IMG/VR virus record: IMGVR_UViG_3300044961_000667
Length of the DNA: 64,000 nucleotides
From: a virus
Taxonomy: Duplodnaviria; Caudoviricetes
Strand: one strand, 5' to 3'
The notes below the pieces were generated by a model. That model ran no database searches. It saw only the letters and a list, made by a program, of their open reading frames with translations, and was not told the origin of the DNA. This document shows positions 5,489 through 56,046 of this stretch, in pieces (within the stretch, counting starts at the first letter, position 1; each line of letters opens with the position of its first letter). A program made the translations under genes and the position numbers.

Positions 5489-7283
5489 TCAGGCCCTACG
5501 CCCTTCTCCTGGGAACAGGATGTCGCTGGCCCTCATGGTGGCGTGGTGCTCTTCATCGATGAGGCCAGCGCGGCGGAGTGACGACAGGTAGTCGGCGAAC
5601 GTTCCACCCGACACCTCCATCTCAACCATCTCGGCGAGTTCCTCTCGCGTCATCCAGCTCGGGTACGACGCGACCAGCACGTTCAGCATCTTCCTCGCGC
5701 CAGCCTTCAGGTTCCGGCTCCACATGCTCACCAGCTCGTGAGTCGAGGCCGGCGCCGATCGGGCCGCGGGTCCCAGGAACTGCATCCCGGACGCGGAGAT
5801 CTTCAGCGACTGAGCGTTCTCCTCCACCAACCCAGCCCGACGGAGCGCCGAGAGGTAGTCGGCGAACGTCCCGCCCGACACCGCCATGCCAACCAGGGTG
5901 GCCAGCTGCGGCCTGGTGGTCCACGCGCCCGGTCGCGCCGAGAGAGCGATCAACATCTCCTTCGCCCCCTTCTTGATCGTCACGTCGCCGATCGCCTGCG
6001 GTCCCGGCCGCGCGTACTGCGCGAGAGCCTTCTTCACCGACTCCGGCAATAGACGAGGCTCCGGTGCGCGGGGGCATCGGGTTGTGCGGCGGGTAGAGCC
6101 CCGGTCCGATCACCTCATGGGGGTTGAAGGCCGGCATCGCCGGTTCGACGTGAGGGCGACCGATTGAACGTGCAATCGATTGCGCAGCATCCTTCGTGTC
6201 GGCAGCCGCACCGGCCAGCTTCTCCGCCGCCTTCTCCAGACGCTTCAGCTGCTTTTCGGTCAACACCGGAACCTCCTTCACGACTTCCTTGATCTGCACC
6301 TTCGTTTCGGTCGGCCGACTCTTCAGCTCGCCTTCCAGCTGAAGAATGCGACGCTTCAGGAAGTCGGGGTCTGCCTTCTCGGCGTCCTCCACCATCGACT
6401 TCAACGACTCACGCAGCTTGGCGACGTCCACCGCGGCCAGCCTCTTCGGCTCGACGAACTCCTCGCCGAACTCCGGCGTGGCCGACGAGTCGAACGTCAG
6501 CTTCCGGTTCACCTTCACCGTCCGCGACACCTTCAGAAACGACGGGCTCCACAGGTGCGCCATCCCCGTGTCGAGCCCTGGCAGGGTGTCAACCAGACTC
6601 AGTTCTTCCGCCTTCGTCACCTTGTCGCTGACCCACGCGATGATCGCCTTCTTCTCGTGGCTGCCGATCGTGCGGTGAGCGAGCACTGTCCCTGCCTGGT
6701 TCAACACCCGCTTGTGCACCGCCTGCGGCTGCTGAGTGATCAAGGACCAGCCGACGCCGTAGTTGCGCCCGAGCTTCAACAGCCGCTCAACTCGGTTGAG
6801 CATGACGCCTTCGTCCTTCTCGGGCGTCTGAGGGGCGAACGTCTGCGCTTCCTCCCAGAAGACGTGCACCGGCGACTTCGACTTCTTCTTGGCCTGGAAG
6901 AACGCCTCGGCGAAGTCTCGAACGAACCGCTTCGTCTCCGCCGTGGTGAACTCCGACACGTCGAGCACCGCGGAGATCTGCTTCTCCACGAGCACGCTGG
7001 CCATCAGCCCGCCCTACTCTGGCGTGAGCGGCAGATCGCCATGCTCCCCGCCAAAGACTGTGATCGCGAACCCATCCTTCTTGCCGTCCGCAGAGCTTCG
7101 CAGCCCCCACCAGACGCCCACGGGATCAAGAGCGCCAACCTGCGCCCCGACCTCCAGCATCAGCTCGGCCAACTTGGTCGCGGAGTACGTCTTGCCGCCG
7201 CCGCTTTGCCCCAGGAAGGCGAACTTCTGCGTCACAGCTGCCAGCGGCAGCCCCAACCCATCTGCAAACGCGAGCGTCTTCAT
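5489..7283 (-). pseudogene. HerA/DUF87-like P-loop ATPase with two C-terminal winged-HTH repeats, broken by an in-frame TAG (7014-7016) and a +1 frameshift near 6070-6074
   Basis: FAFLGQSGGGKTY, LDPVGVWWGLR, VFWEEAQTFAPQ, GRNYGVG..ITQQPQAVHK; tandem SGGTFADYLS.LRRAGL repeats in a second frame. Confidence 0.8.
6171..6184. repeat. TGCAATCGATTGCG palindromic site, copy 1 (coding)
   Basis: Exact match, read directly. Confidence 0.85.
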
Positions 7284-7289
7284 CGAACC

Positions 7290-7493
7290 TCAGGTGGCGC
7301 CGTTCTCGTAGTAGCAGCCTTGGCCCTTCGACCACGTCCTGTTGAGCCCGGCCTCGGCGAGGATCCTCTTGACACAACTCGGCGAGAGACGGAATCGCTC
7401 AGCGAGCCTCGACACTGACAGCTCCTCGTCCTTGCTTGCGACCATGACGATCCTGTCGACCAAAAGCTCCCTCTCTGCCTTGCGAAGACCCAT
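7290..7493 (-). CDS. Small HTH DNA-binding protein
   Basis: SVSRLAERFRLSPSCVKRIL resembles an HTH; first gene after the promoter at 7561. Confidence 0.65.
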   Translation of the reverse strand: MGLRKAERELLVDRIVMVASKDEELSVSRLAERFRLSPSCVKRILAEAGLNRTWSKGQGCYYENGAT

Positions 7494-7527
7494 GCGTTGA
7501 ACCCTCCGTGCGCGGCGCGCGTCACGG

Positions 7528-7561
7528 AGAGGACAACGGAACTAACTACTTTGTCAAGAGG
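7528..7561 (-). promoter_or_regulatory. CCTCTTGAC-family promoter
   Basis: CCTCTTGACAAAG, intergenic; weak -10. Confidence 0.65.
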
Positions 7562-7590
7562 AGCACACACAGTCTCCTGACAAAACAGCC

Positions 7591-10813: not shown

Positions 10814-10846
10814 AGAGTGACACCGGTCTTAGGTTTCGTCAAGAGG
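10814..10846 (-). promoter_or_regulatory. CCTCTTGAC-family promoter
   Basis: TTGACG-17-CACTCT. Confidence 0.75.
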
Positions 10847-11538: not shown

Positions 11539-11571
11539 AAGCTACCAGCTTACGCTAGTTTCGTCAAGAGG
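11539..11571 (-). promoter_or_regulatory. CCTCTTGAC-family promoter
   Basis: TTGACG-17-TAGCTT. Confidence 0.8.
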
Positions 11572-12227: not shown

Positions 12228-12237
12228 CCGGACTTCG

Positions 12238-12251
12238 TGCAATCGATTGCG
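12238..12251. repeat. TGCAATCGATTGCG palindromic site, copy 2 (intergenic)
   Basis: Exact match. Confidence 0.85.
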
Positions 12252-12263
12252 CCCTCCGTCAAG

Positions 12264-17036: not shown

Positions 17037-17069
17037 AAGCTACCTCACTGAATCTGTTTCGTCAAGAGG
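17037..17069 (-). promoter_or_regulatory. CCTCTTGAC-family promoter
   Basis: TTGACG-17-TAGCTT. Confidence 0.8.
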
Positions 17070-18743: not shown

Positions 18744-18776
18744 ATCATGCCAGACGATGCGTGTTTCGTCAAGAGG
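18744..18776 (-). promoter_or_regulatory. CCTCTTGAC-family promoter
   Basis: TTGACG-17-CATGAT. Confidence 0.8.
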
Positions 18777-19047: not shown

Positions 19048-19075
19048 GGCTCTGTGCGGCAACGTCGCGCAACCG

Positions 19076-19089
19076 TGCAATCGATTGCG
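19076..19089. repeat. TGCAATCGATTGCG palindromic site, copy 3 (intergenic)
   Basis: Exact match. Confidence 0.85.
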
Positions 19090-19094
19090 CGACT

Positions 19095-19110
19095 CGTTCC
19101 ACGTGGAACA
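19095..19110. promoter_or_regulatory. parS: parS centromere-like site
   Basis: CGTTCCACGTGGAACA with perfect 14-bp palindromic core, intergenic. Confidence 0.75.
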
Positions 19111-32274: not shown

Positions 32275-32321
32275 GCTCGCGATGAAGCCCGCGTTCGGGC
32301 CGCTGTCAACCAGCTCGCCTG

Positions 32322-32335
32322 TGCAATCGATTGCG
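32322..32335. repeat. TGCAATCGATTGCG palindromic site, copy 4 (probably intergenic)
   Basis: Exact match. Confidence 0.85.
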
Positions 32336-32342
32336 CGTGCGC

Positions 32343-33079: not shown

Positions 33080-33562
33080 TCAGAACAGCTTGGCCAAGGA
33101 CTCCAGCTCCTGGTGGAGCTTGGTGGCCGCCGCCTCCACCTTCGACTTGTGCAGGTGGTGCAGGTCCATCAGCGCCGCCTCGAACTTGTGGCGTGCCTCC
33201 GTCGCACGGCCCAGGCCCTCGGTCATCTTGGCCCGGTTCTCCTGCGTCGGCGGCAGCGCCCGCGCCGCGAGCATCGCCGTGTTGTGCAGCTCGCCCAGCT
33301 TGCCGAGCAGGTGCTTCGACTGGTGGAGGTTCACCTCCAGGGCCTGACTGATCACCTTCGCCTGGCGCTTCATGCCTTCGACGGCATCGCGGACATGGGC
33401 GGTGTCGCCGTTGGCGACGGCCGCCTCTTCCTCAGTGCGCATCTCCACGCGACGCATCGCTCGCTTCTGCTCGACCTTCCTCTTCCGCTCGGTCTCGCTG
33501 AAGCTCTCGGAGAGCGTCTTCCCGGCCTTGCCCAGCTTCTTCAGGTTCTCGTTCAGGTTCAT
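33080..33562 (-). CDS. Hypothetical coiled-coil protein
   Basis: RBS GAGGAG. Confidence 0.75.
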   Translation of the reverse strand: MNLNENLKKLGKAGKTLSESFSETERKRKVEQKRAMRRVEMRTEEEAAVANGDTAHVRDAVEGMKRQAKVISQALEVNLHQSKHLLGKLGELHNTAMLAARALPPTQENRAKMTEGLGRATEARHKFEAALMDLHHLHKSKVEAAATKLHQELESLAKLF

Positions 33563-33833
33563 CTCGCAGGCTCCTCTTGAGGCCGCCGGCTGTCCGGAAG
33601 CCGATGGTCTTCGTCATCTCCAGCTGCATCAACTCCCGCGTTTGCGGGTTCCGAATCTGCCTCGACTTCCGGCTCCTCACCGAGAACACCCCGAAGTCGG
33701 GCCAGGCTGCTCGACCATCCTTCCGAACTGCCGCCGCCAGTTCCTCGAAGAGGATGTCGGCGAACTCCTCGGCGTCCTTCTTCGTCAGCCGAGCGCGGGT
33801 CGCGAGGCGCTCGACGATCTCCTTCTTGGTCAT
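33432..33833 (-). CDS. hup: HU/IHF-family histone-like protein with extended C-terminus
   Basis: MTKKEIV..LTKKDAE..FGVF.VR.RK.R..RNPQT....F. Confidence 0.9.
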   Translation of the reverse strand: MTKKEIVERLATRARLTKKDAEEFADILFEELAAAVRKDGRAAWPDFGVFSVRSRKSRQIRNPQTRELMQLEMTKTIGFRTAGGLKRSLRDEPEREPEEAGQGREDALRELQRDRAEEEGRAEASDASRGDAH

Positions 33834-37635: not shown

Positions 37636-37653
37636 GGCGCCTCCAGGTTGGGG

Positions 37654-37667
37654 TGCAATCGATTGCG
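37654..37667. repeat. TGCAATCGATTGCG palindromic site, copy 5 (intergenic)
   Basis: Exact match. Confidence 0.85.
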
Positions 37668-37675
37668 CATGCGGC

Positions 37676-40293: not shown

Positions 40294-40307
40294 ATTTTCA
40301 GCCAGCC

Positions 40308-40781: not shown

Positions 40782-40809
40782 GGCTCTCTCGCTCTCTGAT
40801 TGAGGAACT

Positions 40810-41487
40810 TCATTCTGCGCGGGACGATGCCTCGCCCGCGGCAGTCTCGACTTTCGTTGGAGGTGGGAGAGCCTGGACGCCGAACAGCGTCGCCATGCCG
40901 GCGTACTCCTCGTACCCCACGAAGAAGAAGAAGCCGTTGTCCAACTCCAGCCAGCCGACGGCTTCCATGTCGTGCTTGGACGCTGGATCGAGGGCAGCCG
41001 AGAAGCCGCAGCCTCGCTTCAGTTCGATCTTGTCGAGCGCCAGCTCGCGAATCCGATCGGGCACTTCCGCCTGATGCTCACGCCGGCAGATGACGTAGAC
41101 GACAGCGTCCTCCTGTCGCCCAGGCTTGGTCTTCTTCGCGCGTGGCGGCTTCTTGCCCACCGCCTTGAACTTCTGGATCTCCAGCCGCCGAGCCTGACGT
41201 GCCATGTGCTCGTGCGCCCAGTTCGCCTTGATCTGCGAGCGCTTCAGCTTCAGCTCGAAGGTGACGAGCTTCTCGTGATCGTTGTGCAACGCCCCGAGGC
41301 ACTCTGGGATCGTCCCGAACTCGTACTCCGCGGCGCCCATGTAGTGGAGGTTGCACACCGACTGGATGGCCTCCCACCCGGCCTTCGACATGGCGATCAT
41401 CCCGCCGCCGAAGACCCGACTCATCTGCGCGTGCCACTCGCTCTCCGGCTTTCGATCCAGCCGCTGCGCAAGGTACGTCTCCTTCAC
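40810..41487 (-). CDS. Hypothetical protein
   Basis: YMGAAEYEFG, WLELDN motifs. Confidence 0.75.
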   Translation of the reverse strand: MKETYLAQRLDRKPESEWHAQMSRVFGGGMIAMSKAGWEAIQSVCNLHYMGAAEYEFGTIPECLGALHNDHEKLVTFELKLKRSQIKANWAHEHMARQARRLEIQKFKAVGKKPPRAKKTKPGRQEDAVVYVICRREHQAEVPDRIRELALDKIELKRGCGFSAALDPASKHDMEAVGWLELDNGFFFFVGYEEYAGMATLFGVQALPPPTKVETAAGEASSRAE

Positions 41488-42212
41488 GCTGCCTCCCTCT
41501 TCGCTCGCATCTCGTTGTCGATCGGCACGAGCCCCAGCGCCTTCGCCTTCTTCAGCGCCTGGTAGATGCGATGAGCCCGTCCGTCGTAGTCGTCGTACGG
41601 CAACGTGGCCAACCAGTGCGCCTGCGGCCACGTCAGCTTCTTGCCGAGCTTCACTGGGCTGAACTGCGCCTTCACGAACTGGGCGTCGTCGGCCGACAGG
41701 TGCTTCAGCACGTCGAACTTCGCCTCGTCATCACCAGCCTCGGGCGGAGGTCGCTTCTGCGAATGGCCGAACTTGTTGCCACCCTCGTCGTACGGCCACA
41801 TGCAGAACTTGCAGGCGTTGAAGAACCCACCGCTCTCGTGCTCGCAGTCCAGGTGGCCACAGGTGGTGCAGACCATCCCGTCATCGTCCGGCTGGAAGTC
41901 ATCGCAGATCTCAGCATCCGCTTCCGAGCCGACGAAGATGTACGGCTTCTTGTCCTCGAACACCCATCGCGTGGGGTCGACGACGGTCTCTCCGTCGTCC
42001 AGCAACACCCACCCGTGGTTGCAGAAACTCATTCCTGCGCGGTCGCCGAAGTACGACGACGGCTGGATGATGCCCGTCCAATGGCCGTACACAGCGCGGC
42101 CCTTCGCCACGCCGTGCTTCACCATCAGCGAGGCGATCTCGAAACACCGCCCCTTCCACTGCTGCGCCGGAATCCCGATTGCTGCTTCCACTTCAGTGAC
42201 GTCGATCCGCAT
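41484..42212 (-). CDS. Hypothetical protein
   Basis: G.C..A..HGW..DPT pattern; first gene after a promoter. Confidence 0.75.
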   Translation of the reverse strand: MRIDVTEVEAAIGIPAQQWKGRCFEIASLMVKHGVAKGRAVYGHWTGIIQPSSYFGDRAGMSFCNHGWVLLDDGETVVDPTRWVFEDKKPYIFVGSEADAEICDDFQPDDDGMVCTTCGHLDCEHESGGFFNACKFCMWPYDEGGNKFGHSQKRPPPEAGDDEAKFDVLKHLSADDAQFVKAQFSPVKLGKKLTWPQAHWLATLPYDDYDGRAHRIYQALKKAKALGLVPIDNEMRAKREAA

Positions 42213-42250
42213 CTCCCGTTCCTCCTGGTCTAGAGGTTGATGCTGAGAAC

Positions 42251-42283
42251 ATCTTGTCTCACGGACACTGTTTCGTCAAGAGG
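42251..42283 (-). promoter_or_regulatory. CCTCTTGAC-family promoter
   Basis: TTGACG-17-CAAGAT. Confidence 0.75.
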
Positions 42284-44458
42284 TTAGTCCTCTTCGGTGT
42301 CTTTTCGCTCGACCAGCCTCTTCTCAGGCAAGCCCAGCTCCTTCCTCTTCTGGTGGAAGCACGACTTGCAGGTCGACAGCAGTACTCCCGGCGAGAGCGT
42401 CGACCACGGGTTGTGCAGCACCCAGTCAGACGGCTCGATGCGGTCCAGGATGCTGTTGCCCGAGTACGGCTCATCGACGAACCAGTTCTGCCAGCCGAAG
42501 TGCAGGTCCTCCACCTTGCACCCGAGCACCGCGGCGATGCCCTGCGGGCACGTCACCTTGAATCCCGTGTGCACGGTGGCGATCACATCGGGGTGGTTCA
42601 CGCAGAAGACGGAGCCGGTCGAGTACCAGTGCTTCGACGGATCCTTCCACTCGTACCCGCGGCGTGGATTCTCGAACTTCTTCTCATTCCCGCCGTTCAG
42701 CTCCACCTCGCTGTAGAAGCCGCTGCCCCACTTGCTCTTCAGCGCCTTGTACACGCGCTTGTGGACACCCTGGGTGACGCAGTTGCCCGTCTTCGTCGTG
42801 TAGTACCCGACCTCGAACGACGTCCGTCGATCCTCCCACGTGCTGAACCTGGGGATCAGCAGCTCTCCTTTCGCGGCGGCAGCCTGCAGGGCCGGCATGT
42901 TCTCCTTCGCCGCCTTGCGCAGCCACTCCAGCGCCTCCTCCTTCTTCTCGGCGAACTCCTTCTGCGCCAGCCCCTGGACGTACTTCATCTTGTTGACGCG
43001 GCCAGCCCAGGCGCGGTCCCGCTCCAGCTTCTCTTTCGTTCCGAACGTCACCGGCGACAGCGTCTCGAAGTTGCCGAGCGTGAGCGAGCCCCGCCGGTGA
43101 TCCCCCGTCGCCGGCAAGTTCTGGTTCTCCCAGCTCGCCTGCAGCAGCTTCACCGCCGACTGGCCGACAGGGTTGAGGAACCGCTCCGGCACCTGCTCCC
43201 CGTACCGTTTCTCCATCCAGGAGTTGAAGCCCGTGCCGCCCTTGAACGACCACTGCTCCTTCGTCTCCTCCAGAGACACCGCCTTCAGGTCGAGCGGCGG
43301 CACGATCAGCGGCGTGTACTTGTTCGCCAGCTCGATCGACGCACCTGAATCGATCAGCGCCATCGGCCGAACCACCATCTCGCCGGTGTAGCTGAGCTGC
43401 TTCAGCTTCGGGTTCTTCCTCCAGTACTTGTCGCGAATCAGGTCGAACATCAGCACCAACCACACGAACTGCTCCGGATGCAGCTGGCCGATCTCCTTCA
43501 GCGGAACGGCGTTCGCGTTGTACGGCACCATCTGCTCTCGCTGCTCCGCGTAGAGCCTTCCATCCTGGGTCACCTTTAGTCCGAGCAGCTGGTACGGGAA
43601 CCAGTGCTTCCCCGCTCTGCTCTCCAGATTGCGATCGGGCCGCCGCGACATCCGGTTGTACGCAGGGTGCGGTCCCTCTTCGCGATCGGTCAGCACCATC
43701 AGCGTCTCGCCGTTGCGAATGGCGAACACGAAGAAGCTGGCCAGCTCCTGCTCCGGGTCTCGAATCAGGCACAGCGAGATGCCGGCGACGCCCTGGTTCA
43801 TCATCGTCTGCAGCAGGCTGTTGACGTTCCAGAACTCGAAGACCTGGCGGTTGTACTTCAGGCTCGACGGGTCTGGGTCGCCGTGGGTGAACTGGTGCGC
43901 CTCCAGCTTTTTGATGGAAAGCAGCGCGTCCCTTCGCACGTAGGCGAGCTGGTACTTGTCTTCGAGCAGCTCGTTCAGTGCCTTGTTCTTCTTGCCGCCG
44001 GGCACCCCGTAGTGCTCAGCCGCTTCGCGCAGCTGATCGACGAAGCCGTCCATCAGATCGACGTAGTCGGGCGATTCGACGAGGTCGCGCAGCGCCGCCA
44101 TCGCATCGATCTGCGACTTGCACCGATCCGCCGACAGCAGGAGATCGAAGGCCGTGAACGGCGTCGTCTTGAGGTGGTGCTCCGTCAACCCACGAAGCAT
44201 CATCAACGTCGTCAGCCCAGTCGGGTCGAGATCGCGTGACTCGTTCAAGGCGTCAAGATGCTTGGCCAGCGTGTACTGATCGAACGGCTCCAGCTGGCTT
44301 CCGCCCTCCTGCACCGTCAGACGGATCGTGAACCCACGCTTGTTCGGGTTCGCGCCCGTGACGTCAGCCCAGCGCTTCAGGGCTTCGTTCACGAGCTGAT
44401 TCACCGTGCCGAAGGCAGGCTTTGGCGCCTCAACTCGCTCGACTTTCTCAGCACCCAT
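42284..44458 (-). CDS. Large hypothetical protein (724 aa)
   Basis: Long GC3-rich ORF; no family recognised. Confidence 0.85.
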   Translation of the reverse strand: MGAEKVERVEAPKPAFGTVNQLVNEALKRWADVTGANPNKRGFTIRLTVQEGGSQLEPFDQYTLAKHLDALNESRDLDPTGLTTLMMLRGLTEHHLKTTPFTAFDLLLSADRCKSQIDAMAALRDLVESPDYVDLMDGFVDQLREAAEHYGVPGGKKNKALNELLEDKYQLAYVRRDALLSIKKLEAHQFTHGDPDPSSLKYNRQVFEFWNVNSLLQTMMNQGVAGISLCLIRDPEQELASFFVFAIRNGETLMVLTDREEGPHPAYNRMSRRPDRNLESRAGKHWFPYQLLGLKVTQDGRLYAEQREQMVPYNANAVPLKEIGQLHPEQFVWLVLMFDLIRDKYWRKNPKLKQLSYTGEMVVRPMALIDSGASIELANKYTPLIVPPLDLKAVSLEETKEQWSFKGGTGFNSWMEKRYGEQVPERFLNPVGQSAVKLLQASWENQNLPATGDHRRGSLTLGNFETLSPVTFGTKEKLERDRAWAGRVNKMKYVQGLAQKEFAEKKEEALEWLRKAAKENMPALQAAAAKGELLIPRFSTWEDRRTSFEVGYYTTKTGNCVTQGVHKRVYKALKSKWGSGFYSEVELNGGNEKKFENPRRGYEWKDPSKHWYSTGSVFCVNHPDVIATVHTGFKVTCPQGIAAVLGCKVEDLHFGWQNWFVDEPYSGNSILDRIEPSDWVLHNPWSTLSPGVLLSTCKSCFHQKRKELGLPEKRLVERKDTEED

Positions 44459-44840
44459 AGCGCTCGCAGTACCGTCTCTCGCGGTTATTGGCGGCCTCCG
44501 CCTCGACGAAGTCGTTGAACTTCTCCAGCAGCTCCGGGCTCTGAGCCTCCAGCGCCTGGACGTCGACGACGGCGACCACTTTCTCGCCGCCGCACACGGT
44601 GCACGTGACGTCGTACTTCCCCGTCATGTACGCCTCGCGCTCGTCATCGTCCCAGTCCGCCCACTCCGACGCCGTGATGCCGTTGCCGTCGATCGCACGG
44701 TTGGTGTGGCGACCATGGCCACCACACTCGTCGCAGACCTCGTGCTTGCCTGGCAGGAGGACGGACACCTCTTCGCCGTCGTCGTCCTCGTAGGCGAACT
44801 CGATCTCTCCCGACGGCGACAGCTTCTTCCCGATGCCCAT
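44448..44840 (-). CDS. DnaJ-type zinc-finger hypothetical protein
   Basis: CDECGGHG..CTVCGG. Confidence 0.75.
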   Translation of the reverse strand: MGIGKKLSPSGEIEFAYEDDDGEEVSVLLPGKHEVCDECGGHGRHTNRAIDGNGITASEWADWDDDEREAYMTGKYDVTCTVCGGEKVVAVVDVQALEAQSPELLEKFNDFVEAEAANNRERRYCERYGC

Positions 44841-44843
44841 CGC

Positions 44844-45176
44844 TCAGCCCTCGTAGACCGCGCTGTACCAGCTGGTGCACTGCTCGGCGTAGACGCCCAT
44901 CTTCTTCAGGTCGCCCAGCATCTGCCGGTGGAAGTCGTACTGCTCATACGCGTAGTTGAACGCGCCGGCGTGATCTCCGCCGTCGTGCACGACGATCAGC
45001 AGGGAGTCGCAGCCGTACTGCTCACCGCGCTCCTTCCACTGCTCCGGCGTGTAGAAGACCTTGCAGCCGCCCGAGTACAGCCGATCCTTCGACTTCAGAA
45101 AGGCGATGATCCTCTCGGCCGCAGCCCGCCCCTTCGGAGACAGGCCCTCCGGGATCTCGAACCCCTTGGCCTCCAT
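44844..45176 (-). CDS. Hypothetical protein
   Basis: TGATG-coupled start. Confidence 0.7.
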   Translation of the reverse strand: MEAKGFEIPEGLSPKGRAAAERIIAFLKSKDRLYSGGCKVFYTPEQWKERGEQYGCDSLLIVVHDGGDHAGAFNYAYEQYDFHRQMLGDLKKMGVYAEQCTSWYSAVYEG

Positions 45177-45817
45177 CACTGCACCTCGAAGTACTTCATG
45201 GCGACGGCCAGGAGGTTGCTGTAGTCGCCGCCCGTCATCTCCTTCTGCACCGCGTCGATCTTCGACTGCTCCCAACCGGCCTTCTTCGCCGCCTTCAGGC
45301 ACTTGCCGATGATGAGGAAGGCGTTGCCATCGAAGCCGAGCAGCTCCACCACCGGCTTGTCGTCGTGCTCGCCGTCATTGCCGCTGGATTCCAGCCGCTC
45401 TTCGATCTCGTCCTCCTCCGTCCGAACGGACTCGACCGACGCCTCCACTTCCTTCACGTAGATCCGCTGGTGCGCAGTGCCGTCCCACTCCACCTTGATG
45501 CAGGGGAAGGCGCCGAACTCGGCCACGATCGTCTTCCCCACCTCCACCACCTTCTGCTCATCGTCCGACGGGTGGCCGAACGCGAGGTGAAGCCCCTTCG
45601 GCTTCCCACGGAAGCGGCGCTCCGTGAACACCTCCGCGTCCTGCTTGTGGAAGAAGACGATGCCGGTCGGCTTCAGCCCCTTCTCTCTGATGTCGCTGGC
45701 GATGCCCGCCCAGCCGCACCCGCCACAGCACATGTAGCGCTGTCGGGCGATGAAGCCCTTCTTGCGCAGGTTGTCGAACGCCTTCGAGAGAGCCGCCTTC
45801 AAGTCGCCGTTCTGCAT
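45176..45817 (-). CDS. DUF6891-like domain fused to a small conserved domain
   Basis: AFDNLRKKGFIARQ..CCGGCG; C-terminal DGNAF.IIG. Confidence 0.7.
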   Translation of the reverse strand: MQNGDLKAALSKAFDNLRKKGFIARQRYMCCGGCGWAGIASDIREKGLKPTGIVFFHKQDAEVFTERRFRGKPKGLHLAFGHPSDDEQKVVEVGKTIVAEFGAFPCIKVEWDGTAHQRIYVKEVEASVESVRTEEDEIEERLESSGNDGEHDDKPVVELLGFDGNAFLIIGKCLKAAKKAGWEQSKIDAVQKEMTGGDYSNLLAVAMKYFEVQ

Positions 45818-45866
45818 CGTCCATCTCCTGTCCAGCTGGGTTGCTGGTGGTTGGGGTGATTCTCAG

Positions 45867-45900
45867 AAACTACCAGCAGTCCGCCTGTTTCGTCAAGAGG
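45867..45900 (-). promoter_or_regulatory. CCTCTTGAC-family promoter
   Basis: TTGACG-18-TAGTTT. Confidence 0.8.
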
Positions 45901-45930
45901 TATGGCGACACGCCTGTCGTTTACGCCTCA

Positions 45931-46116
45931 TCAACCGCGGGCGCGGCGATGCCGCACGAGACGCAACATCGGCTTCTCTTGGGTGGGAGTGTCTGCCGGC
46001 TTTTGCAACTCCCGCCCGACCTCTTCGTCAAGCAGCTGGTGCAGCCGTTCTGCTGGCTCCTTCGACGTCAGTACGTCGAGGATGAACTTCACGTCGAAAC
46101 GGGTCTTCTTGGGCAT
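45931..46116 (-). CDS. Hypothetical protein
   Basis: RBS AGGAG. Confidence 0.55.
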   Translation of the reverse strand: MPKKTRFDVKFILDVLTSKEPAERLHQLLDEEVGRELQKPADTPTQEKPMLRLVRHRRARG

Positions 46117-46385
46117 TGACTTTCTCCTGCCCCTTCATTCGCACCCCAGGGCGGAAGTTCGACAGGCCCCATCGCGTGTCCCGTCGTGCTGCTGATGCTG
46201 AGCCACCTGGCCTTGCACCTGGGGCATCGGATCTCCGATCTGGAGGGCACCGGGGCGCCATCCGGGTACTGCAGCAGGACGCTCAGAAACCTAGCCCTCG
46301 GCTCGATGTCCACCGCAGCGATGAACATCACCGCCTCACACCTGAGGCAGGTGATCGGATCGCCCTTGCTCAAACCCTCAGCCAC
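46089..46385 (-). CDS. Zn-ribbon hypothetical protein
   Basis: CLRC..CPRC. Confidence 0.6.
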   Translation of the reverse strand: MAEGLSKGDPITCLRCEAVMFIAAVDIEPRARFLSVLLQYPDGAPVPSRSEIRCPRCKARWLSISSTTGHAMGPVELPPWGANEGAGESQCPRRPVST

Positions 46386-46397
46386 ACGGCCTCCACG

Positions 46398-46411
46398 TGC
46401 AATCGATTGCG
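46398..46411. repeat. TGCAATCGATTGCG palindromic site, copy 6 (intergenic)
   Basis: Exact match. Confidence 0.85.
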
Positions 46412-46422
46412 CATTACAAGGG

Positions 46423-46800
46423 CTACGCGTCTGGGAGCAGCCCGAAGTTGTCGATCTCCACCCTCAGCTCGGGGGGCATGGGCTTGGCCAAGCGGTACCG
46501 GCGCTCGACGTTCACGACGTGGTGGCCGGCAATGCCTTCCATGACGAAGAGCGAGTAGTCGTCCGGGCTGTCGCACTCCATCATCTCCAGCTCGTCCTTC
46601 GTCGGGCGGTCGTCCTCGGGAAGCTCGTCGTAGGGCACGTCCGTTCCAACGACTGCGAACATCGTGTCCCACTGGCCTTCCCTGTACAGCTGCCACGACT
46701 CTTCGTTGCTGATCGGCGTCAGGGGCCCGTACTTCCCGATGAACTCCGCCAACTCCCTCTTGTCAGCCATGTCTGTCTCCTCTTCGGGTTTGAACTGCAT
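46423..46800 (-). CDS. Hypothetical protein
   Basis: GC3-rich ORF. Confidence 0.7.
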   Translation of the reverse strand: MQFKPEEETDMADKRELAEFIGKYGPLTPISNEESWQLYREGQWDTMFAVVGTDVPYDELPEDDRPTKDELEMMECDSPDDYSLFVMEGIAGHHVVNVERRYRLAKPMPPELRVEIDNFGLLPDA

Positions 46801-46860
46801 CCCTTCCCACCCAACGAAGCCTCTCGCTGCAAACGAGCGACTTCGTCCTGGGTGGGAGGG

Positions 46861-47322
46861 CTACTCCAACAGCTTCGCCGCGGTGGCCTCCATCTGCCGC
46901 CGGTAGGCCGCGAGGTCCTTCGCCGGCTCCACCTCGTACACGTCCCAGCCCTTCTTGGCCGCGCTCTCCACCTCAGCGATGAACTGGCTGATGGTGCGGC
47001 CGTGCTTGTCGTCGGCGGGCTTGTTCGTGAACCGGCAGTCCTCGACTTCGTGCCAGCAGTGATCGTCCTCGTTCGACGGGTACTCTCCGTCCCCGAAGAG
47101 GAACACCGACGGCACCCTCACCTGCTCCGCATTGAAGAACTCGCCACTGTCGCAGGCCGCCTCCAACCGGCTCCACTCGTCTTCGCTGATGCGCCCGGCG
47201 AAGACGACTGTTCCAAACTGCTTGTAGTTGCTGGCGTCGCGGTACAGGTAGCTGAACTCGGTGTTCGGCCGCTTCAGTTCGTCCTGCTTCTTCAACTCCG
47301 ACTTCCGGGCAAGAGCCTTCAA
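46861..47322 (-). CDS. Hypothetical protein
   Basis: YLYRDASNYK..DHCWHE motif. Confidence 0.75.
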   Translation of the reverse strand: MKALARKSELKKQDELKRPNTEFSYLYRDASNYKQFGTVVFAGRISEDEWSRLEAACDSGEFFNAEQVRVPSVFLFGDGEYPSNEDDHCWHEVEDCRFTNKPADDKHGRTISQFIAEVESAAKKGWDVYEVEPAKDLAAYRRQMEATAAKLLE

Positions 47323-47358
47323 TCACGCCTCCATGGGTTTGGGGTCGATGCTGAGAGG

Positions 47359-47391
47359 ATCATGTCTCACTGACGCAGTTTCGTCAAGAGG
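47359..47391 (-). promoter_or_regulatory. CCTCTTGAC-family promoter
   Basis: TTGACG-17-CATGAT. Confidence 0.8.
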
Positions 47392-47598
47392 TTAGTTCGG
47401 AAGTAGGGCCACTGCACGGAAGGCGTGAAGCTGCCACCACCGCAGCTGCTCGGCGAAGCGCTTCATCGTGCTGAAGACGGGATCGCTGGGTGCTGGAGCG
47501 CCGAGACCAAGGCACATCTCCATCGGCCGGCCACAGGCAGTGCACCTGGGCAAGTCGTACCGCAGCGGTTGCTTACAGACTGCGCACCATTCAGACAC
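47392..47598 (-). CDS. Small Zn-finger hypothetical protein
   Basis: CAVC..CTAC; flanked by two promoters. Confidence 0.6.
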   Translation of the reverse strand: MSEWCAVCKQPLRYDLPRCTACGRPMEMCLGLGAPAPSDPVFSTMKRFAEQLRWWQLHAFRAVALLPN

Positions 47599-47640
47599 CG
47601 GTTCCTCCGACCCCCTCCAGGAGTCGAGGCATCGACGCTG

Positions 47641-47675
47641 ATTGTACAGTGGATCTGACCCGTTACGTCAAGAGG
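47641..47675 (-). promoter_or_regulatory. CCTCTTGAC-family promoter
   Basis: TTGACG-19-TACAAT. Confidence 0.7.
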
Positions 47676-47877
47676 TGACAGGTTCCAGCGTCAGTCGCAC
47701 CACGATGACCGGACTGATCGACCAAATCGTCTTCGTGACTCTGTACAGGCCCGGCTCAATCCGGTTCGCATGCGGAACTTCGTTGAAGTCCCACCTCAGG
47801 TAACTGCCGACCTCCGGCACCGGCATGTCGAGCGACAACTCTCGCTCTGCCTCTGGCGTCTCGAACACAAAGTGCAT
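47668..47877 (-). CDS. Hypothetical protein
   Basis: RBS GAGGA. Confidence 0.65.
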   Translation of the reverse strand: MHFVFETPEAERELSLDMPVPEVGSYLRWDFNEVPHANRIEPGLYRVTKTIWSISPVIVVRLTLEPVTS

Positions 47878-47886
47878 CGACGTTCC

Positions 47887-48123
47887 TCAGCACTCGAACA
47901 GGATGTGGATGCGCTCGGCCGGGTGCTGATCGCACGGGCACGGGTTCGGCTGGCCAGTGCGGAAGCCCTCCTTCGACACCGTCCACCCCGACTTGATGCC
48001 GGTCGCCCGCACGACGTTCGCGTACTCGGCGGCCTCCTCAGGCTTCATGTCGGTGCACACGCTCATGTAGCAGATGCCGTCGCTGTACACCTCGAACACT
48101 GCTTCCTTGTCCTTCGCTGCCAT
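47887..48123 (-). CDS. Hypothetical protein
   Basis: MAAKDKE..; NPCPC..H. Confidence 0.65.
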   Translation of the reverse strand: MAAKDKEAVFEVYSDGICYMSVCTDMKPEEAAEYANVVRATGIKSGWTVSKEGFRTGQPNPCPCDQHPAERIHILFEC

Positions 48124-48125
48124 GT

Positions 48126-49265
48126 TCACCCCACGACTCGAATCGGGTTGGACTCCTCGACTTCCATGGGACCGCGCCAGAACGGGTTGATCCACATGAG
48201 CTTCCTCAGGCTGTGCTTCGGCCCGTGCGTCTGGTTGCGCCAGTGCCCCTGCACCAACGTCCGCACGTGGAGCGGACGGCTTTCGCCAGTCCCCTCAGAC
48301 ATGCGCTTCACGCCACGGCCCAAGTAGATCCGCCGGCGAGGGTCGACGCCCTTCAGCTCCTCGCGGAGCCGGTCTTTCTTCTGACCAGGAGGCAGCTTGT
48401 CGAGCCGCGCCTTCATCTGACGCCACTGCTTGTTGCTGGCCTCCTCGAAGACGTCGGCTTCCGGGTGGTGCGTCGCGTAGAGCACCACGTTCATCGCCAG
48501 CATGAACAGCTGCTGCCACTTCGGCGCCAACCCATCCTGAGCGCGGTAGATGTACCGCAGCTCCTCGGGCATCTGCTGATCGAGGAACTCCTGCCGGTCG
48601 TCGAGGCACTCCGTCACCTTCTTCCCCGGCGTCAGCAGCAGGTCGAAGGTGAACGTGAGCCAGTTCGGCAACCCGTCACTGAGGTACCCATCGGGCTCGC
48701 CAATGGCGCACAACCGCCACGAGCGCCCGTTCCGCTCCGAGCCGTCCATGTTGAGCGACCTGGGCGACTCCGTGATGTACATCCCGACGAGCCCGCACTT
48801 CTTGCTCCCGTCGTAGAAGAAGTCGGCGCCTGCCTGCGGCGGCACCGCGATGTAGATGTTCGAGTACGGCAGCCGCAGGTCGTCCGAGGACACCCCACGC
48901 AGCTCCGTGTACTTGAAGCAGTCGGCCAGCCCTTCCGACAACTCGTAGACGCGACGCCCCGTCTTCCGGTGGCACAACCGCTGCCAGTTCTCCCCCATCG
49001 TCGAGTTGGCACCCGACTGCCCCACCAGCCTGACGATCTGCTGGTAGAACGCGTTCAGCTTCTTCGAGTGCATGATCATCCCTTCCAGGAAGAGGTGATC
49101 GACGCCTTCGGCAGCCGCGTCGAACATCGCGTCGAGCGTGGCCTGGAACTGGCGCGGGTTGGCGACCTCCAACACCGGCATGTCAGACGCGGCGATGCGC
49201 CGACCAACAGCACGGAACGGTGCGATCGTCTCTTCCATGCACTCGGAGTGCGTCTTCAAGCTCAT
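48126..49265 (-). CDS. Conserved phage hypothetical protein
   Basis: C-terminal V.GHWR.Q..GP..RK..WI.PFWRG motif. Confidence 0.8.
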   Translation of the reverse strand: MSLKTHSECMEETIAPFRAVGRRIAASDMPVLEVANPRQFQATLDAMFDAAAEGVDHLFLEGMIMHSKKLNAFYQQIVRLVGQSGANSTMGENWQRLCHRKTGRRVYELSEGLADCFKYTELRGVSSDDLRLPYSNIYIAVPPQAGADFFYDGSKKCGLVGMYITESPRSLNMDGSERNGRSWRLCAIGEPDGYLSDGLPNWLTFTFDLLLTPGKKVTECLDDRQEFLDQQMPEELRYIYRAQDGLAPKWQQLFMLAMNVVLYATHHPEADVFEEASNKQWRQMKARLDKLPPGQKKDRLREELKGVDPRRRIYLGRGVKRMSEGTGESRPLHVRTLVQGHWRNQTHGPKHSLRKLMWINPFWRGPMEVEESNPIRVVG

Positions 49266-49821
49266 TCGGGTCTCCTCATCAGGTACAGCATCCGCGCCAG
49301 CAGCCTGGCCGCGCTGTTCGCGTCATCGACACCGCGGTGGTGCGTGCCCTCCATGAGCAGCCCCAGCCGCGGCAGAGCCTGCTCAAGGCCGCACTCCTTC
49401 TCGCCGGTGAAGAGCGCGAACAGGTTCTTCAGGTTGAGGTGCGTCGGCCCGAACGGGTACTTGATGCCCTCGTCCCGGCACTGACGCTCCATCTGCCGGC
49501 GGTCGTAGTCGCCCCAGCTCGCCCACGTCATCCCGAAGTTGATCAGCGGGGCAACGTCCCCGAGCGCCTCCTTCAGCATCGGCCGGTCAGCCACCATCTC
49601 CGGCGTGATGGTCGTCAACCTGGTGCAGAATTCGCTCACCTCAGTCGTGGTCGGCTTCACCAAGATGCCCGCGGCTCCGACAACCCGCAGGGTCTTCGTG
49701 TCCAGCACCGCGACGCCGATCTCGATGATCTCCCCTTCTTTCGCTCGGGGTACGTCTCGTCGTTCTCCCAGCAAGTCGCCTCAAGATCGACCACGCCGAT
49801 CCGGCTCGTGTCTCTAGCCAT
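49262..49821 (-). CDS. DEDDh 3'-5' exonuclease (KapD/ERI-1-like) split by a -1 frameshift at 49738-49743
   Basis: Frame A: MARDTSRIGVVDLEATCWE; frame B: EIIEIGV..WGDYD..HRGVDDA. Confidence 0.85.
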
Positions 49822-50482
49822 TGTCGTTCTCCTTGTTCTGCAGCTCTCGCTTCAGCAGAAACCCGATGGCCATGTTCAACGGCATCGTCTCGTCCTTCTG
49901 ACGCTGGAACCAGGCGAGCACGACCTCAAGCCTCTCCGGCGGCAGGTACTCCTTCATCTTCAGGATGATGCGCGTCAACAGAGCCCGGTCGACCGTCCAC
50001 GCCTGCCTCGACTTGTCGACGGCAGACGCCTCGCACGCCTTCACGTCGAAGCTGAACGCCCCCACGCAGGCCATCGGCCGCTTCTTGTAGATGCGGCACC
50101 GCCCGTTCTCCCCGAGGAAGATGCACTTCATCATCGGGTGCCCGGTCTGGTCGGAGACATCCGGCTTGCCGGCCTCAGCGATGGCCCAGTCTGCGTGCGC
50201 CAACGCCTTGTTGAGAACGTCGCCCAGCGACTTGTCTCTGGAGCACAGCTCGACCAGCGCCGTCGCCTCCATGGGCGTCAGCCAGGGTTGATCGTGGGTG
50301 CAACACCACGTGCAGCCAGCGCGACAAGCGGGCCTGACGCCCAGCCTCTTCTTCGCCAGCTCGTGGGCGTACTCGAAGTTGTTCCGCGTCTCCAAGTACA
50401 CCTGCAGGTTCGACGACGGCTCCTTCGTCGTGAAGTCGATGATGTCGCCGTTCTTCGGCAGCCTGTCGAGCGGGCTACTCAT
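49814..50482 (-). CDS. YkgJ-family Cys-cluster protein
   Basis: CRAGCTWCC..CIFL..GRCRIY..RP.AC. Confidence 0.88.
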   Translation of the reverse strand: MSSPLDRLPKNGDIIDFTTKEPSSNLQVYLETRNNFEYAHELAKKRLGVRPACRAGCTWCCTHDQPWLTPMEATALVELCSRDKSLGDVLNKALAHADWAIAEAGKPDVSDQTGHPMMKCIFLGENGRCRIYKKRPMACVGAFSFDVKACEASAVDKSRQAWTVDRALLTRIILKMKEYLPPERLEVVLAWFQRQKDETMPLNMAIGFLLKRELQNKENDNG

Positions 50483-54430: not shown

Positions 54431-54723
54431 GACGCGGCCTCCTGCCGGCAGACCTCTTCGACGTGCTCGCGGAACTCCGCCTCGGGCGGGCAGAACTTCT
54501 GCTTGGCGACGGGGCCGTACCAGTACCCGATTTCCAGGATGTCGACCTCCACCGGGCTCGACTTCAGCTCCTTCGGGAAGTGCTTCTCGCCCCACTGCTT
54601 GTACTCGTCGACGTCGAAGCGACGGATGTCGAGGAAGCACGTCGGCACGACGCCGAAGGGAACCCCCTTGGCGTCGACGTCCATGTCACCGTGGCTGTGG
54701 ATGATGAAGGCTGGCTTGCTCAT
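54427..54723 (-). CDS. Hypothetical protein
   Basis: RBS GGAG. Confidence 0.7.
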   Translation of the reverse strand: MSKPAFIIHSHGDMDVDAKGVPFGVVPTCFLDIRRFDVDEYKQWGEKHFPKELKSSPVEVDILEIGYWYGPVAKQKFCPPEAEFREHVEEVCRQEAAS

Positions 54724-54732
54724 GTTCGTCTC

Positions 54733-55032
54733 CTAGATCTTGTCTCTCTTGCGTTGCGATGCGACCGCCAACCCCTGGCGGTAGTACTGACCGTCGAGAG
54801 GATCGAGCCACCGCACGTTGTCTCCGGCGGGCTGATCCTCGAACACGTGAGGGATCCACTTGGCCGCGTGCAGGTACTCCGCCTCTGCGGCGAGCAGGCG
54901 TCCGGCTGCGTTGATGACGCTCCGGCCGACGGTTTCGCACCACGGCTGGTGCTCACCGATGACGTAGCTGTTGCACGACGAGCACAGCGACTTGTGATCG
55001 AGCTTGAAGTTCTTCGGGCGGTCCATCAGCAC
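54733..55032 (-). CDS. Hypothetical protein
   Basis: CSSC..H..WC. Confidence 0.65.
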   Translation of the reverse strand: MLMDRPKNFKLDHKSLCSSCNSYVIGEHQPWCETVGRSVINAAGRLLAAEAEYLHAAKWIPHVFEDQPAGDNVRWLDPLDGQYYRQGLAVASQRKRDKI

Positions 55033-55217
55033 TCTCTCAGCCAGTCCCTCGTCTGCTCGAAGGCTTGGCGCTTCTCCGGGTTGATGTTCGGGTACTTCTT
55101 CAGGTTCGCGTCGATGCGATCCGCGAACTCCTGCGCCGTCGACTTCGACAGCGCTGCGAGCGCAGCCGCCGCGCAGAACTCGTCCGACAGGACGTCCAGC
55201 CCCTTCTTGTCGCTCAT
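55026..55217 (-). CDS. Hypothetical protein
   Basis: TGATG-coupled start. Confidence 0.6.
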   Translation of the reverse strand: MSDKKGLDVLSDEFCAAAALAALSKSTAQEFADRIDANLKKYPNINPEKRQAFEQTRDWLREC

Positions 55218-55582
55218 CAGTTTCTCCGAGAGAGGATCTCCGCCGCCTTCATCACCCCGCGAGCAGTCGGCGTGACGATCGTCTTCAACCCCTGGTTCAT
55301 CAGCATCGCCGACACCACGTTGCACACCCAGTCGACCTCGGCGGCAAACGTGATCGACCGCCAGATGTCGGCGTCGGTTGCACCCTGGACCATGAAGCGC
55401 ATGCGGTGCTCTGCCTGGCGAGCCTCGTCAAGCAGGACGCCGAGGTTCTCAGGCGACTTCCGCCGGCACGCCTCGAAGCCCGCCAGCGCCCCCGCCCGAC
55501 GAGCCTCGTCGTTGGCGTAGTCGACGTTCACCGCGCGAATTCCGTCCTCGATCAGGTGCTGCAGGAACTCTTCGTAGGTCAC
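55217..55582 (-). CDS. Hypothetical protein
   Basis: Coupled ORF. Confidence 0.7.
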   Translation of the reverse strand: MTYEEFLQHLIEDGIRAVNVDYANDEARRAGALAGFEACRRKSPENLGVLLDEARQAEHRMRFMVQGATDADIWRSITFAAEVDWVCNVVSAMLMNQGLKTIVTPTARGVMKAAEILSRRN

Positions 55583-56046
55583 GCGTTCTCCAGCGTCTTG
55601 TGGGGCCAGTACCTCGGGATGGACTGCGTCTGAGCGCGAAGCGTCATCGACTGCCGCTCCACCGTCCCCGCGGGCACCCCGTGGATGCCGCGCGCCGCAG
55701 CCACAGCCGGGGCGACGTCGAGAGTGACGATCTGCAGCGTGTGCCCGAAGGCGACGGCCAGGGCTGCGTATGGCGCCAGCTCGGCCACCGACGTGTTCGT
55801 GTTGTCGACCACCAGCACGTCGACATCACCCGGCGATGCAATCGATTGCGTGTACCGCCGCAGGCAGTCCGCGTGCGCGTCGCTGAGTCGCGTGGCGTCG
55901 AACTTGTACTCGCCGTCGCGCTTGAAGAAGTCGTCCGACGACATCACCAGCGCCTTCATGCCGGCGGCCATCGACCATTCGACGATCCGCCTGGCGTGGG
56001 TGGACTTCCCAGCGCCAGACGGACCCCTGAGGATGTAGACGATCAT
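55579..56046 (-). CDS. AAA_33 / N4BP2-like P-loop kinase
   Basis: YILRGPSGAGKST, SSDDFF..Y.FD..L..AH..C, VDNTN. Confidence 0.88.
   Translation of the reverse strand: MIVYILRGPSGAGKSTHARRIVEWSMAAGMKALVMSSDDFFKRDGEYKFDATRLSDAHADCLRRYTQSIASPGDVDVLVVDNTNTSVAELAPYAALAVAFGHTLQIVTLDVAPAVAAARGIHGVPAGTVERQSMTLRAQTQSIPRYWPHKTLENA
55837..55850. repeat. TGCAATCGATTGCG palindromic site, copy 7 (coding)
   Basis: Exact match. Confidence 0.8.

Follow-up and report, generated by a model that had tools for sequence, protein, structure and literature searches.

Evenly spaced, operator-like palindromes along the genome of a large uncultured phage

The window analysed here is a 64,000-nucleotide stretch of an uncultured T4-like phage genome of about 200 kb, found in hot-spring mats, bioreactors, wastewater and soil. 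Of its 117 predicted genes, 115 lie on the minus strand, and there are some 23 sigma70-like early promoters of the CCTCTTGAC type. The 12-mer GCAATCGATTGC, a perfect palindrome, occurs exactly seven times, at 6172, 12239, 19077, 32323, 37655, 46399 and 55838; the surrounding 16-mers start 2 nt earlier, one letter before the positions given in the initial annotation that first drew attention to them. Six copies share GTGCAATCGATTGCGC on the plus strand, and the seventh is ATGCAATCGATTGCGT; because the genes are almost all on the minus strand, the common sense form is GCGCAATCGATTGCAC. The copies are as follows.

6170..6185, minus strand: copy 1, sense form GCGCAATCGATTGCAC, coding, reads AQSIA; it lies in the linker of a gene for a HerA-like ATPase plus tandem winged helix, which is an intact 597-aa ORF in the relative L256 but is here broken by an in-frame TAG and one extra C.
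12237..12252, minus strand: copy 2, intergenic, 11 nt behind the stop of a 68-aa gene and ahead of the thymidylate kinase gene; identical in the near-identical contig L182.
19075..19090, minus strand: copy 3, intergenic, 23 nt behind a stop; its flanks extend it to a 12-bp stem.
32321..32336, minus strand: copy 4, intergenic, 6 nt behind a stop and 46 nt before the next ATG; conserved in the relatives L057 and L060.
37653..37668, minus strand: copy 5, in a 40-nt gap, 7 nt behind a stop, 8 nt before GGAGG and 17 nt before the ATG of a 145-aa gene; in the mosaic relative L060 the gap is replaced by a 76-aa gene that carries the palindrome in another frame.
46397..46412, minus strand: copy 6, intergenic, 10 nt behind a stop and 2 nt before GGAGG; the surrounding block 45878-46474 is replaced by 1275 other letters in two public runs.
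55836..55851, minus strand: copy 7, sense form ACGCAATCGATTGCAT, coding, reads TQSIA inside a P-loop (AAA_33) kinase gene at 56046..55579.

The initial annotation had described seven co-oriented copies, five of them apparently intergenic and two coding for QSIA, and this observation is confirmed. The 12-mer was absent from 100 dinucleotide shuffles and, in the comparison with codon-preserving shuffles that had been proposed as a test, 300 shuffles gave a mean of 0.02 copies and a maximum of 1. No copies with one or two mismatches exist. Five copies are intergenic although only 13% of the window is non-coding (P = 6e-4), and all five lie 6–23 nt behind a stop codon. The other two are truly coding, and use CAA (4% of Gln codons), ATT (9% of Ile codons) and GCA (6% of Ala codons) in frame. 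A reading in which copy 1 marks a gene junction is ruled out, because the gene is continuous in L256.

We then asked whether selection acts on the DNA or on the encoded protein. In L060, copy 5 is kept in a diverged, rearranged segment but in a different reading frame (RNRLR), so selection acts on the DNA, in agreement with the rare codons used by the coding copies. Two further copies in relatives are fully symmetric. Megablast against cultured phages found nothing, a radical-SAM query found nothing, and helicase relatives in IMG/VR and metagenomes (52–58% identity) carry no copy and no analogous repeated palindrome. Contigs of three RNA runs and one DNA run compared with positions 30000–49999 gave no usable transcript-end information and only an incomplete list of differences, and hence no evidence either way on expression or on variation at the sites.

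Two more copies were found upstream of the window, giving nine copies over 73 kb with a spacing of 9.1 ± 2.7 kb (CV 0.30), which is more regular than uniform placement (P = 0.0013). All nine share the left half-site; seven share the same asymmetric right half, one is fully symmetric, and copy 7 differs at both outer letters. All seven copies in the window are co-oriented, but this cannot be tied to transcription because nearly all genes here share one strand, and walking 22 kb beyond the window found only genes on that same strand.

The copies lie inside early operons and never beside the sigma70-like promoters, the nearest of which is 300–5100 bp away; they are therefore not classical promoter-overlapping operators. 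Their co-orientation with the genes, their position upstream of genes and their separation from the early promoters could suggest a promoter or terminator signal for a phage-specific transcription factor, sigma or RNA polymerase, marking middle or late units inside the early region, much as T4 middle promoters lie inside early units. We consider this unlikely. The core is palindromic, no conserved −10-like element or other flank accompanies it, as few as 11–17 nt separate it from a start codon, and some copies lie inside coding sequence. The same sequence is also abundant in bacterial genomes and in unrelated phages that share no polymerase. Nor do the copies resemble intrinsic terminators, GC-rich hairpins followed by a T run: no T run follows them, and terminator scans found no more candidates than expected by chance and none at the sites.

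An alternative is that the element acts in the mRNA, as a small hairpin or protein-recognized RNA motif between a stop codon and the next ribosome-binding site that would set translation coupling, processing or stability. The positions behind stop codons, and of copies 5 and 6 just before GGAGG, are as expected for such an element. In addition, several unrelated phage contigs carry 2–7 copies of the palindrome, and in other phages 10 of 27 copies lie 0–5 nt before an SD plus start codon, against a background of 14%. The symmetric form folds to a 6-bp stem of −5.2 kcal/mol. Nevertheless, the sense form in this phage carries a C·A mismatch and folds at only −2.4 kcal/mol, whereas the antisense form folds better at −4.8 kcal/mol, and four of five contexts fold no better than shuffles. 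The sequence is strictly conserved with no compensatory variation, coding copies and copies far from any start exist, and in bacteria the same sequence sits in operator positions of LacI genes. An RNA-level role thus appears improbable.

It is also possible, though we think it unlikely, that the palindrome is a short mobile or recombination-boundary unit, spreading by copy-and-paste or marking points of cassette exchange. The copies are exact, with no degenerate relatives, and copies 5 and 6 lie in segments that are replaced or rearranged in natural relatives. However, there is no similarity beyond 16–18 bp and no target duplication, the replaced blocks do not end at the palindrome, and the coding copy in the ATPase linker aligns without a gap to homologues, so it arose by substitution and not by insertion. 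PeSL cassettes of T4-type phages are likewise repeated intergenic elements near points of gene replacement, but join an early promoter to a stem–loop in one unit of about 50–70 bp (PMC2839356), whereas the palindromes here are never joined to a promoter. REP elements, imperfect palindromes of 20–40 nt with a conserved head that accompany a RAYT transposase gene, resemble the present sites only in their position behind stop codons.

The initial annotation had noted the LacI-family operator architecture and inferred a dispersed protein-binding system. The site does have the form of such operators (PurR, GalR, CcpA-cre type), being an even-length palindrome of 16–18 bp with a central CG and an AA-N-CG-N-TT core, GCAATCGATTGC within GCGCAATCGATTGCAC. 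In bacteria the same 16-mer, in its symmetric forms, lies beside LacI-family regulator genes or sugar-acid (hexuronate) genes in 32 of 120 sampled hits. These comprise 12 loci with LacI-family genes, of which 2 were confirmed by Pfam and 8 more show typical HTH sequences, 17 loci with altronate dehydratase (UxaA), and others with KDG kinase, KDPG aldolase or TonB receptors; the positions include autoregulatory ones at LacI-family genes and sites before hexuronate genes. These contexts say nothing about the phage copies themselves, which are dispersed, lie within operons and even within genes, and have no LacI gene nearby. No PF00356 hit was obtained among 114 window proteins, and tblastn found no LacI-like gene in the window plus contigs L255 and L060; the 78 kb of this phage covered, including 14 kb beyond the window, hold none, but the remaining 120 kb or so could encode a reader.

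The 12-mer is strongly enriched in one bacterial lineage. It occurs 27, 33 and 27 times, respectively, in G004 (Reyranella massiliensis 521) and in G039 and G051, two related species, but 0–3 times in about 60 genomes of the same genus or family, with a reversed-pattern control of 0. In G004, 9 of 27 copies lie 6–35 nt behind a stop codon, as in the phage; this position, and the confinement of the expansion to one Reyranella subclade, would also be compatible with a REP-like element. In an orthologous spacer, however, the 12-mer is invariant between G004 and G051 while its flanks differ. A LacI paralogue (G004:4220873-4221883 in R. massiliensis 521, which has two other LacI proteins) with orthologues of 90% identity or more occurs only in the three enriched genomes, although it has no site beside it and its correlation with the motif is confounded by shared ancestry. 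Genes next to the Reyranella copies are functionally mixed and not LacI-linked. We also considered a terminus-linked, matS-like arrangement: 11 of 27 copies cluster at 2.44–2.77 Mb, beside but not centred on the GC-skew switch at about 2.05–2.4 Mb. Searches for a host link by DNA identity or spacers gave only short chance-level matches; the candidate host assignment rests on the motif alone.

Regular spacing, and copies embedded in coding sequence, are unusual for a regulon. They could instead reflect a phage-encoded protein that reads the sites as periodic loading or anchoring points for genome organization, replication, DNA modification or packaging, in the manner of parS/ParB or KorB/OB, rather than as gene-specific switches. 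Three copies are forced into coding sequence with rare codons where no gap was available, and the phage encodes candidate DNA binders, an HU/IHF-family protein at 33833..33432 and the HerA-like ATPase with tandem winged helices. We regard this as possible but doubtful, because no link between either protein and the motif was found, and the unrelated phages that carry the palindrome share no obvious common DNA-binding family in the stretches read. The HerA–winged-helix protein was rejected as reader, since its gene is broken in this genome and a homologue was found in only one of the two enriched Reyranella genomes in the family sample. Palindromes of 13–16 bp scattered over a replicon and read by one protein that both organizes DNA and affects transcription are exemplified by parS/ParB, the OB sites of RK2 KorB and N15 sopC, but the present sequence shows no likeness to OB or to canonical parS, a 16-bp palindrome of the TGTTNCACGTGAAACA type read by an HTH ParB. 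A reading as sites for ParB-dependent DNA modification was set aside: the ParBs implicated in it lack an obvious DNA-binding domain (PMC13229309), and the putative ParB-like gene of this phage lies outside the window.

Repeated sites of several kinds have been described along phage genomes, although no paper was found that reports the 12-mer in this sense. Stoperators of Cluster A mycobacteriophages are many near-identical sites, mostly in short gaps between genes and in one orientation, that stop elongating RNA polymerase (PMC9283540, PMC6550527); they are asymmetric 13–14-mers read by a monomeric immunity repressor of temperate phages, whereas here the core is a perfect palindrome in a lytic-type genome and no phage repressor was found. 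The 17-bp dyad repeats of Cluster O mycobacteriophages (TGTTCGGNNNCCGAACA; PMC4351075) are invariant inverted repeats of unknown function, both between and inside ORFs, but differ in sequence, have a 3-bp spacer and number more than 30 in about 70 kb; no spacing regularity, host enrichment or match to a known operator class has been reported for them. Start-associated sequences (SAS/ESAS) of Cluster K mycobacteriophages (PMC3203893) are placed directly ahead of start codons of genes of different families, and it is not known whether host or phage reads them. SAS is a 13-bp non-palindromic motif that overlaps the SD and is absent from the host genome, whereas the present motif is palindromic, precedes the SD only at some copies and is abundant in a candidate host.

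Our preferred, though tentative, interpretation is that the copies are evenly spaced, high-affinity binding sites on double-stranded DNA for one dimeric helix–turn–helix protein, the site being of the LacI-operator type, GCAA-N-CG-N-TTGC. The reader would probably be supplied by the host, because the 78 kb of phage sequence encode no LacI-like protein, because the same sequence would be a working operator next to LacI-family genes in many bacteria, and because it is about 75-fold over-represented in the R. massiliensis group, which thereby becomes the candidate host lineage. In this view the protein would sit at gene junctions inside sigma70-driven early operons, just behind a stop codon and sometimes directly before the next ribosome-binding site, where it could block or pause RNA polymerase, or tether the DNA at about 9-kb intervals; either way, phage expression or genome organization would depend on that factor and its ligand. 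The anatomy of the sites, selection at the DNA level, the regular spacing, the operator contexts in bacteria and the enrichment in Reyranella and in other phages are established by our analysis, but that a protein binds, which protein it is and what binding does are inferred. The interpretation in the initial annotation is therefore partly supported: its protein-binding reading and LacI-operator resemblance gained real support, but its three options are not yet separated, as the position inside operons fits a stoperator-like roadblock, the Reyranella enrichment and the lack of a phage LacI gene fit a host factor, and the regular spacing and copies forced into coding sequence fit genome organization. 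Nothing shows a link to metabolism, which it had proposed for a host LacI regulon.

A more speculative possibility, which we consider unlikely on present evidence, is that one and the same 16-bp operator is used by many unrelated phages of hosts from different phyla to capture a conserved host LacI-family repressor of the sugar-acid type. Placed at regular intervals, it would either gate infection by the nutrient state of the host, or soak up the repressor as the phage DNA replicates and so unlock host catabolism. This would be a general phage strategy that has not been described.

Phage-wide repeated sites such as stoperators, Cluster O dyads and SAS are known, but most have no identified reader. 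The palindrome described here comes with concrete leads, in that its sequence class, the LacI operator, has real bacterial examples of the identical site, a cultured candidate host lineage, R. massiliensis, holds about 30 copies in its genome, and other phages carry the same site, which makes binding and function directly testable. The spacing rule suggests a genome-wide role, and the motif provides a sequence-based clue to the host of an uncultured T4-like phage.

The 12-mer GCAATCGATTGC occurs exactly seven times in the window. It did not occur in 100 dinucleotide-preserving shuffles, and variants with one or two mismatches are absent. We also used a control, named beforehand, in which synonymous codons were shuffled within genes and bases were shuffled within gaps; this gave a mean of 0.02 copies and a maximum of 1 in 300 trials. 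The repeat described in the initial annotation is therefore confirmed. Six copies share GTGCAATCGATTGCGC on the plus strand and the seventh is ATGCAATCGATTGCGT; on the coding strand the element reads GCGCAATCGATTGCAC. The 12-mers, with the sense form on the minus strand, lie as follows.

6172 (-), copy 1, coding, in the linker of a HerA-like ATPase/winged-helix gene, reading AQSIA
12239 (-), copy 2, in a gap between genes
19077 (-), copy 3, in a gap between genes
32323 (-), copy 4, in a gap between genes
37655 (-), copy 5, in a gap between genes, 8 nt before a GGAGG
46399 (-), copy 6, in a gap between genes, 2 nt before a GGAGG
55838 (-), copy 7, coding, inside a P-loop kinase gene, reading TQSIA

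The window has 63% G+C and a strongly negative GC skew throughout, and a simple codon-usage gene caller places 115 of 117 genes on the minus strand. Pfam and PHROG hits include an SNF2 helicase, a DnaN-type clamp, a radical-SAM enzyme, RNase H, thymidylate kinase, a minimal PolX, a D12 methyltransferase, a UvrD helicase and HNH endonucleases, which mark the early/replication region of a large phage. A 133-aa HU/IHF-family DNA-binding protein (PF00216, E 2e-21) is encoded at 33432-33833 on the minus strand and overlaps the next gene call by ~130 bp. The longest contig in the cluster that holds one window protein is 200,091 bp, and searches found no close cultured phage. Public runs that contain the sequence come from hot-spring/mat, bioreactor, wastewater, soil and biofilm samples, plus one isolate RNA-seq run.

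The five copies in short gaps lie 6-23 nt behind the stop codon of the preceding gene. Because only 13% of the window is non-coding, finding five of seven copies in gaps has P = 6e-4. Copy 1 might be taken for a gene junction, because the coding signal changes frame there, but in L256, a mosaic relative, the gene is one intact 597-aa ORF, from which the window differs by an in-frame TAG (7014-7016) and one extra C in a C-run near 6075. This gene (5489-7283, minus strand) encodes a HerA-like ATPase with two C-terminal winged-helix domains and belongs to a family of ~585 aa with 3796 relatives and no curated name; TAG read-through is conceivable. The coding copies use CAA, ATT and GCA, which make up 4%, 9% and 6% of their codon families, and the chance of this spelling given the peptide is about 1e-4. 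Nothing is conserved outside the 16-18 bp. The copy in the ATPase linker aligns without a gap to homologues, and so arose by substitution and not by insertion; a mobile or boundary element fits fewer facts and is, in our view, unlikely.

We next examined the relation of the copies to transcription signals. A second repeat family was found, comprising about 23 sigma70-like early promoters with an extended -35 of the form CCTCTTGAC(G/A)AA, followed by a spacer of about 13 nt and then a -10 such as TAGATT, CATGAT or similar. All are on the minus strand, for example at 10833-10846, 11558-11571, 17056-17069, 18763-18776, 42270-42283, 45887-45900 and 47378-47391, and three (22421, 31615 and 56468) are preceded by a short hairpin plus CTTTCC. 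The palindromes are never beside these promoters, but lie 600-4800 bp downstream of one promoter and 300-5100 bp upstream of the next, which puts them inside early transcription units. No -10-like element follows them, and scans for terminators did not list them. A phage-specific promoter or terminator signal also fits fewer facts, and we consider it improbable.

As RNA, the sense form folds at only -2.4 kcal/mol because of a C·A mismatch, and four of the five intergenic contexts fold no better than shuffles. At copy 3 (19063-19103, minus strand) the flanks extend the palindrome to a 12-bp stem (-21.6 kcal/mol, z -3.8), and this occurs at no other copy. The weak folding argues for a DNA-level, protein-read site, and a signal acting in the RNA is likewise an unlikely alternative.

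Near-identical contigs from other samples keep the copies. The informative case is L060, a 123.7-kb contig that is 98-99% identical to the window overall but only 85-89% identical around copy 5. There the 40-nt gap is replaced by 223 bp encoding a credible 76-aa gene (GC3 0.88), which carries GCGCAATCGATTGCGC in a different frame (RNRLR), 105 nt before the same downstream gene. The site is therefore kept at that position while its surroundings and reading frame change. Other gene-sized blocks, at 45878-46474, 36088-36329 and 38018-38503, differ among natural relatives: a 597-bp block is replaced by 1275 other letters in two runs, an 80-aa gene is missing in three runs, and an HNH gene is missing in one. 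Just upstream of the window start, the UvrD-like helicase is 966 aa with a weak intein-splicing (Pfam) hit in one lineage (contigs L182/L255, 5280-8180), and 669 aa without one in the mosaic relative (L256, 6171-8180).

Extending the search beyond the window start revealed two more copies. One lies at about -4,961, inside the HTH_36 initiator gene, and again reads AQSIA in frame; the other lies at about -17,231, in a gap, and is fully symmetric. The nine verified copies span 73 kb, with gaps of 12.3, 11.1, 6.1, 6.8, 13.2, 5.3, 8.7 and 9.4 kb, a coefficient of variation of 0.30; only 0.13% of uniform placements are as even. Copies embedded in coding sequence fit a requirement for a site roughly every 9 kb, although the rule may not be strict. 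The spacing and the coding copies favour the main rival to the reading we prefer, a phage-encoded reader with a genome-organisation or loading role, which remains possible but is the less likely of the two.

In order to explore what reads such a sequence, we scanned one genome per bacterial species for GYGCAATCGATTGCRC, which gave at least 120 loci. The ORFs within 600 bp of each of these 120 hits were clustered and representatives searched against Pfam. LacI-family regulators were found at 12 loci, from Rhodobacter, Gordonia, Corynebacterium, Telluria, Chloroflexota, Flavobacteriia, Cytophagia and Bacteroidales, altronate dehydratase at 17, PfkB (KDG-type) kinase at 5, KDPG aldolase at 4 and TonB-dependent receptors at 4; together these cover 32 of the 120 loci. 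In several cases the site lies a few to about 50 nt before the start of the LacI gene. Symmetric forms predominate, 53 plus 35 against 32 asymmetric. Judged by these contexts, the identical 16-mer is a working LacI-family operator in several phyla, and this validates with data the remark in the initial annotation that the palindrome has the architecture of such an operator. The wider proposal made there, of a dispersed protein-binding system, is partly supported. No LacI-like protein is encoded in the window or in the two other stretches of this phage lineage that were searched.

We then counted the 12-mer in five of those bacterial genomes. Four had 1-3 copies, whereas Reyranella massiliensis 521 (5.8 Mb, 65% G+C) had 27, with about 0.35 expected and a reversed-pattern control of 0. 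In samples of its family (41 genomes) and genus (26 genomes), only two further species are enriched, represented by genomes G039, with 33 exact copies, and G051, with 27 exact and about 50 one-mismatch copies; all other genomes in these samples have 0-3. The consensus in this candidate host lineage is the symmetric cGTGCAATCGATTGCACg. Nine of the 27 copies in R. massiliensis 521 lie 6-35 nt behind a stop codon, as in the phage. In one orthologous spacer the 12-mer is identical in R. massiliensis 521 and G051 while its flanks have diverged; other species lack it there, and one has a terminator-like hairpin in its place. Neighbouring genes are functionally mixed. Eleven of the 27 copies cluster within 330 kb at 2.44-2.77 Mb, beside the GC-skew switch at about 2.05-2.4 Mb, the origin being near 5.0 Mb, and contig C42 of G039 shows a similar cluster of 11 copies in 235 kb.

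Of the three LacI genes in R. massiliensis 521, one has orthologues of at least 90% identity only in the three enriched genomes, plus a 77% orthologue in one non-enriched genome. It has no site next to it, and the correlation is confounded by shared ancestry. Phage and Reyranella share no DNA matches, and Reyranella is a lead for the host rather than a demonstration.

The same site is present in other phages. IMG/VR holds several contigs with 2-7 copies of GTGCAATCGATTGCAC in the stretches fetched, at 39-64% G+C. Of these, 3300032155_000026, 3300035542_000143, 3300014204_000123, 3300035208_001792 and 3300050011_000542 (47-64% G+C) carry 4-7 copies, and two further two-copy contigs have 39-45% G+C. 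They share almost no proteins with the window and include T4-type and GTA-like-tailed phages. Of 27 sites in all multi-copy contigs, ten lie 0-5 nt before a Shine-Dalgarno sequence and start codon, against 14% at random positions. A separate lineage of at least 28 contigs has a single copy inside a conserved ~300-aa gene and is not informative. The stretches read share no obvious common DNA-binding family, which favours a host-supplied reader, or one not captured in those stretches.

On present evidence the element would work most like the stoperators of Cluster A (PMC9283540, PMC6550527) or the Cluster O dyad repeats (PMC4351075), and it shares placement with the Cluster K start-associated sequences (PMC3203893). 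It is not a member of any of these, because sequence, symmetry and inferred reader differ. We also compared it with PeSL (PMC2839356). A PeSL is a promoter joined to a stem-loop, and the palindromes fail this definition. The element matches the sequence definition of a LacI operator but not the contextual one, since there is no promoter and no nearby regulator. In the literature searched, no paper contained the 12-mer in this sense.

The LacI-operator contexts in bacteria, the Reyranella enrichment, the spacing statistic, the frame-independent conservation in L060 and the multi-copy unrelated phage contigs are observations added by this analysis. By contrast, that a protein binds, which protein it is, and the consequence of binding, be it roadblock, insulation, tethering or titration, are inferred. 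The best-supported reading, which we hold only tentatively, is that the copies are a set of dispersed binding sites for one dimeric HTH protein of the LacI-operator type, probably supplied by the host, sitting at gene junctions inside early operons and at about 9-kb intervals.
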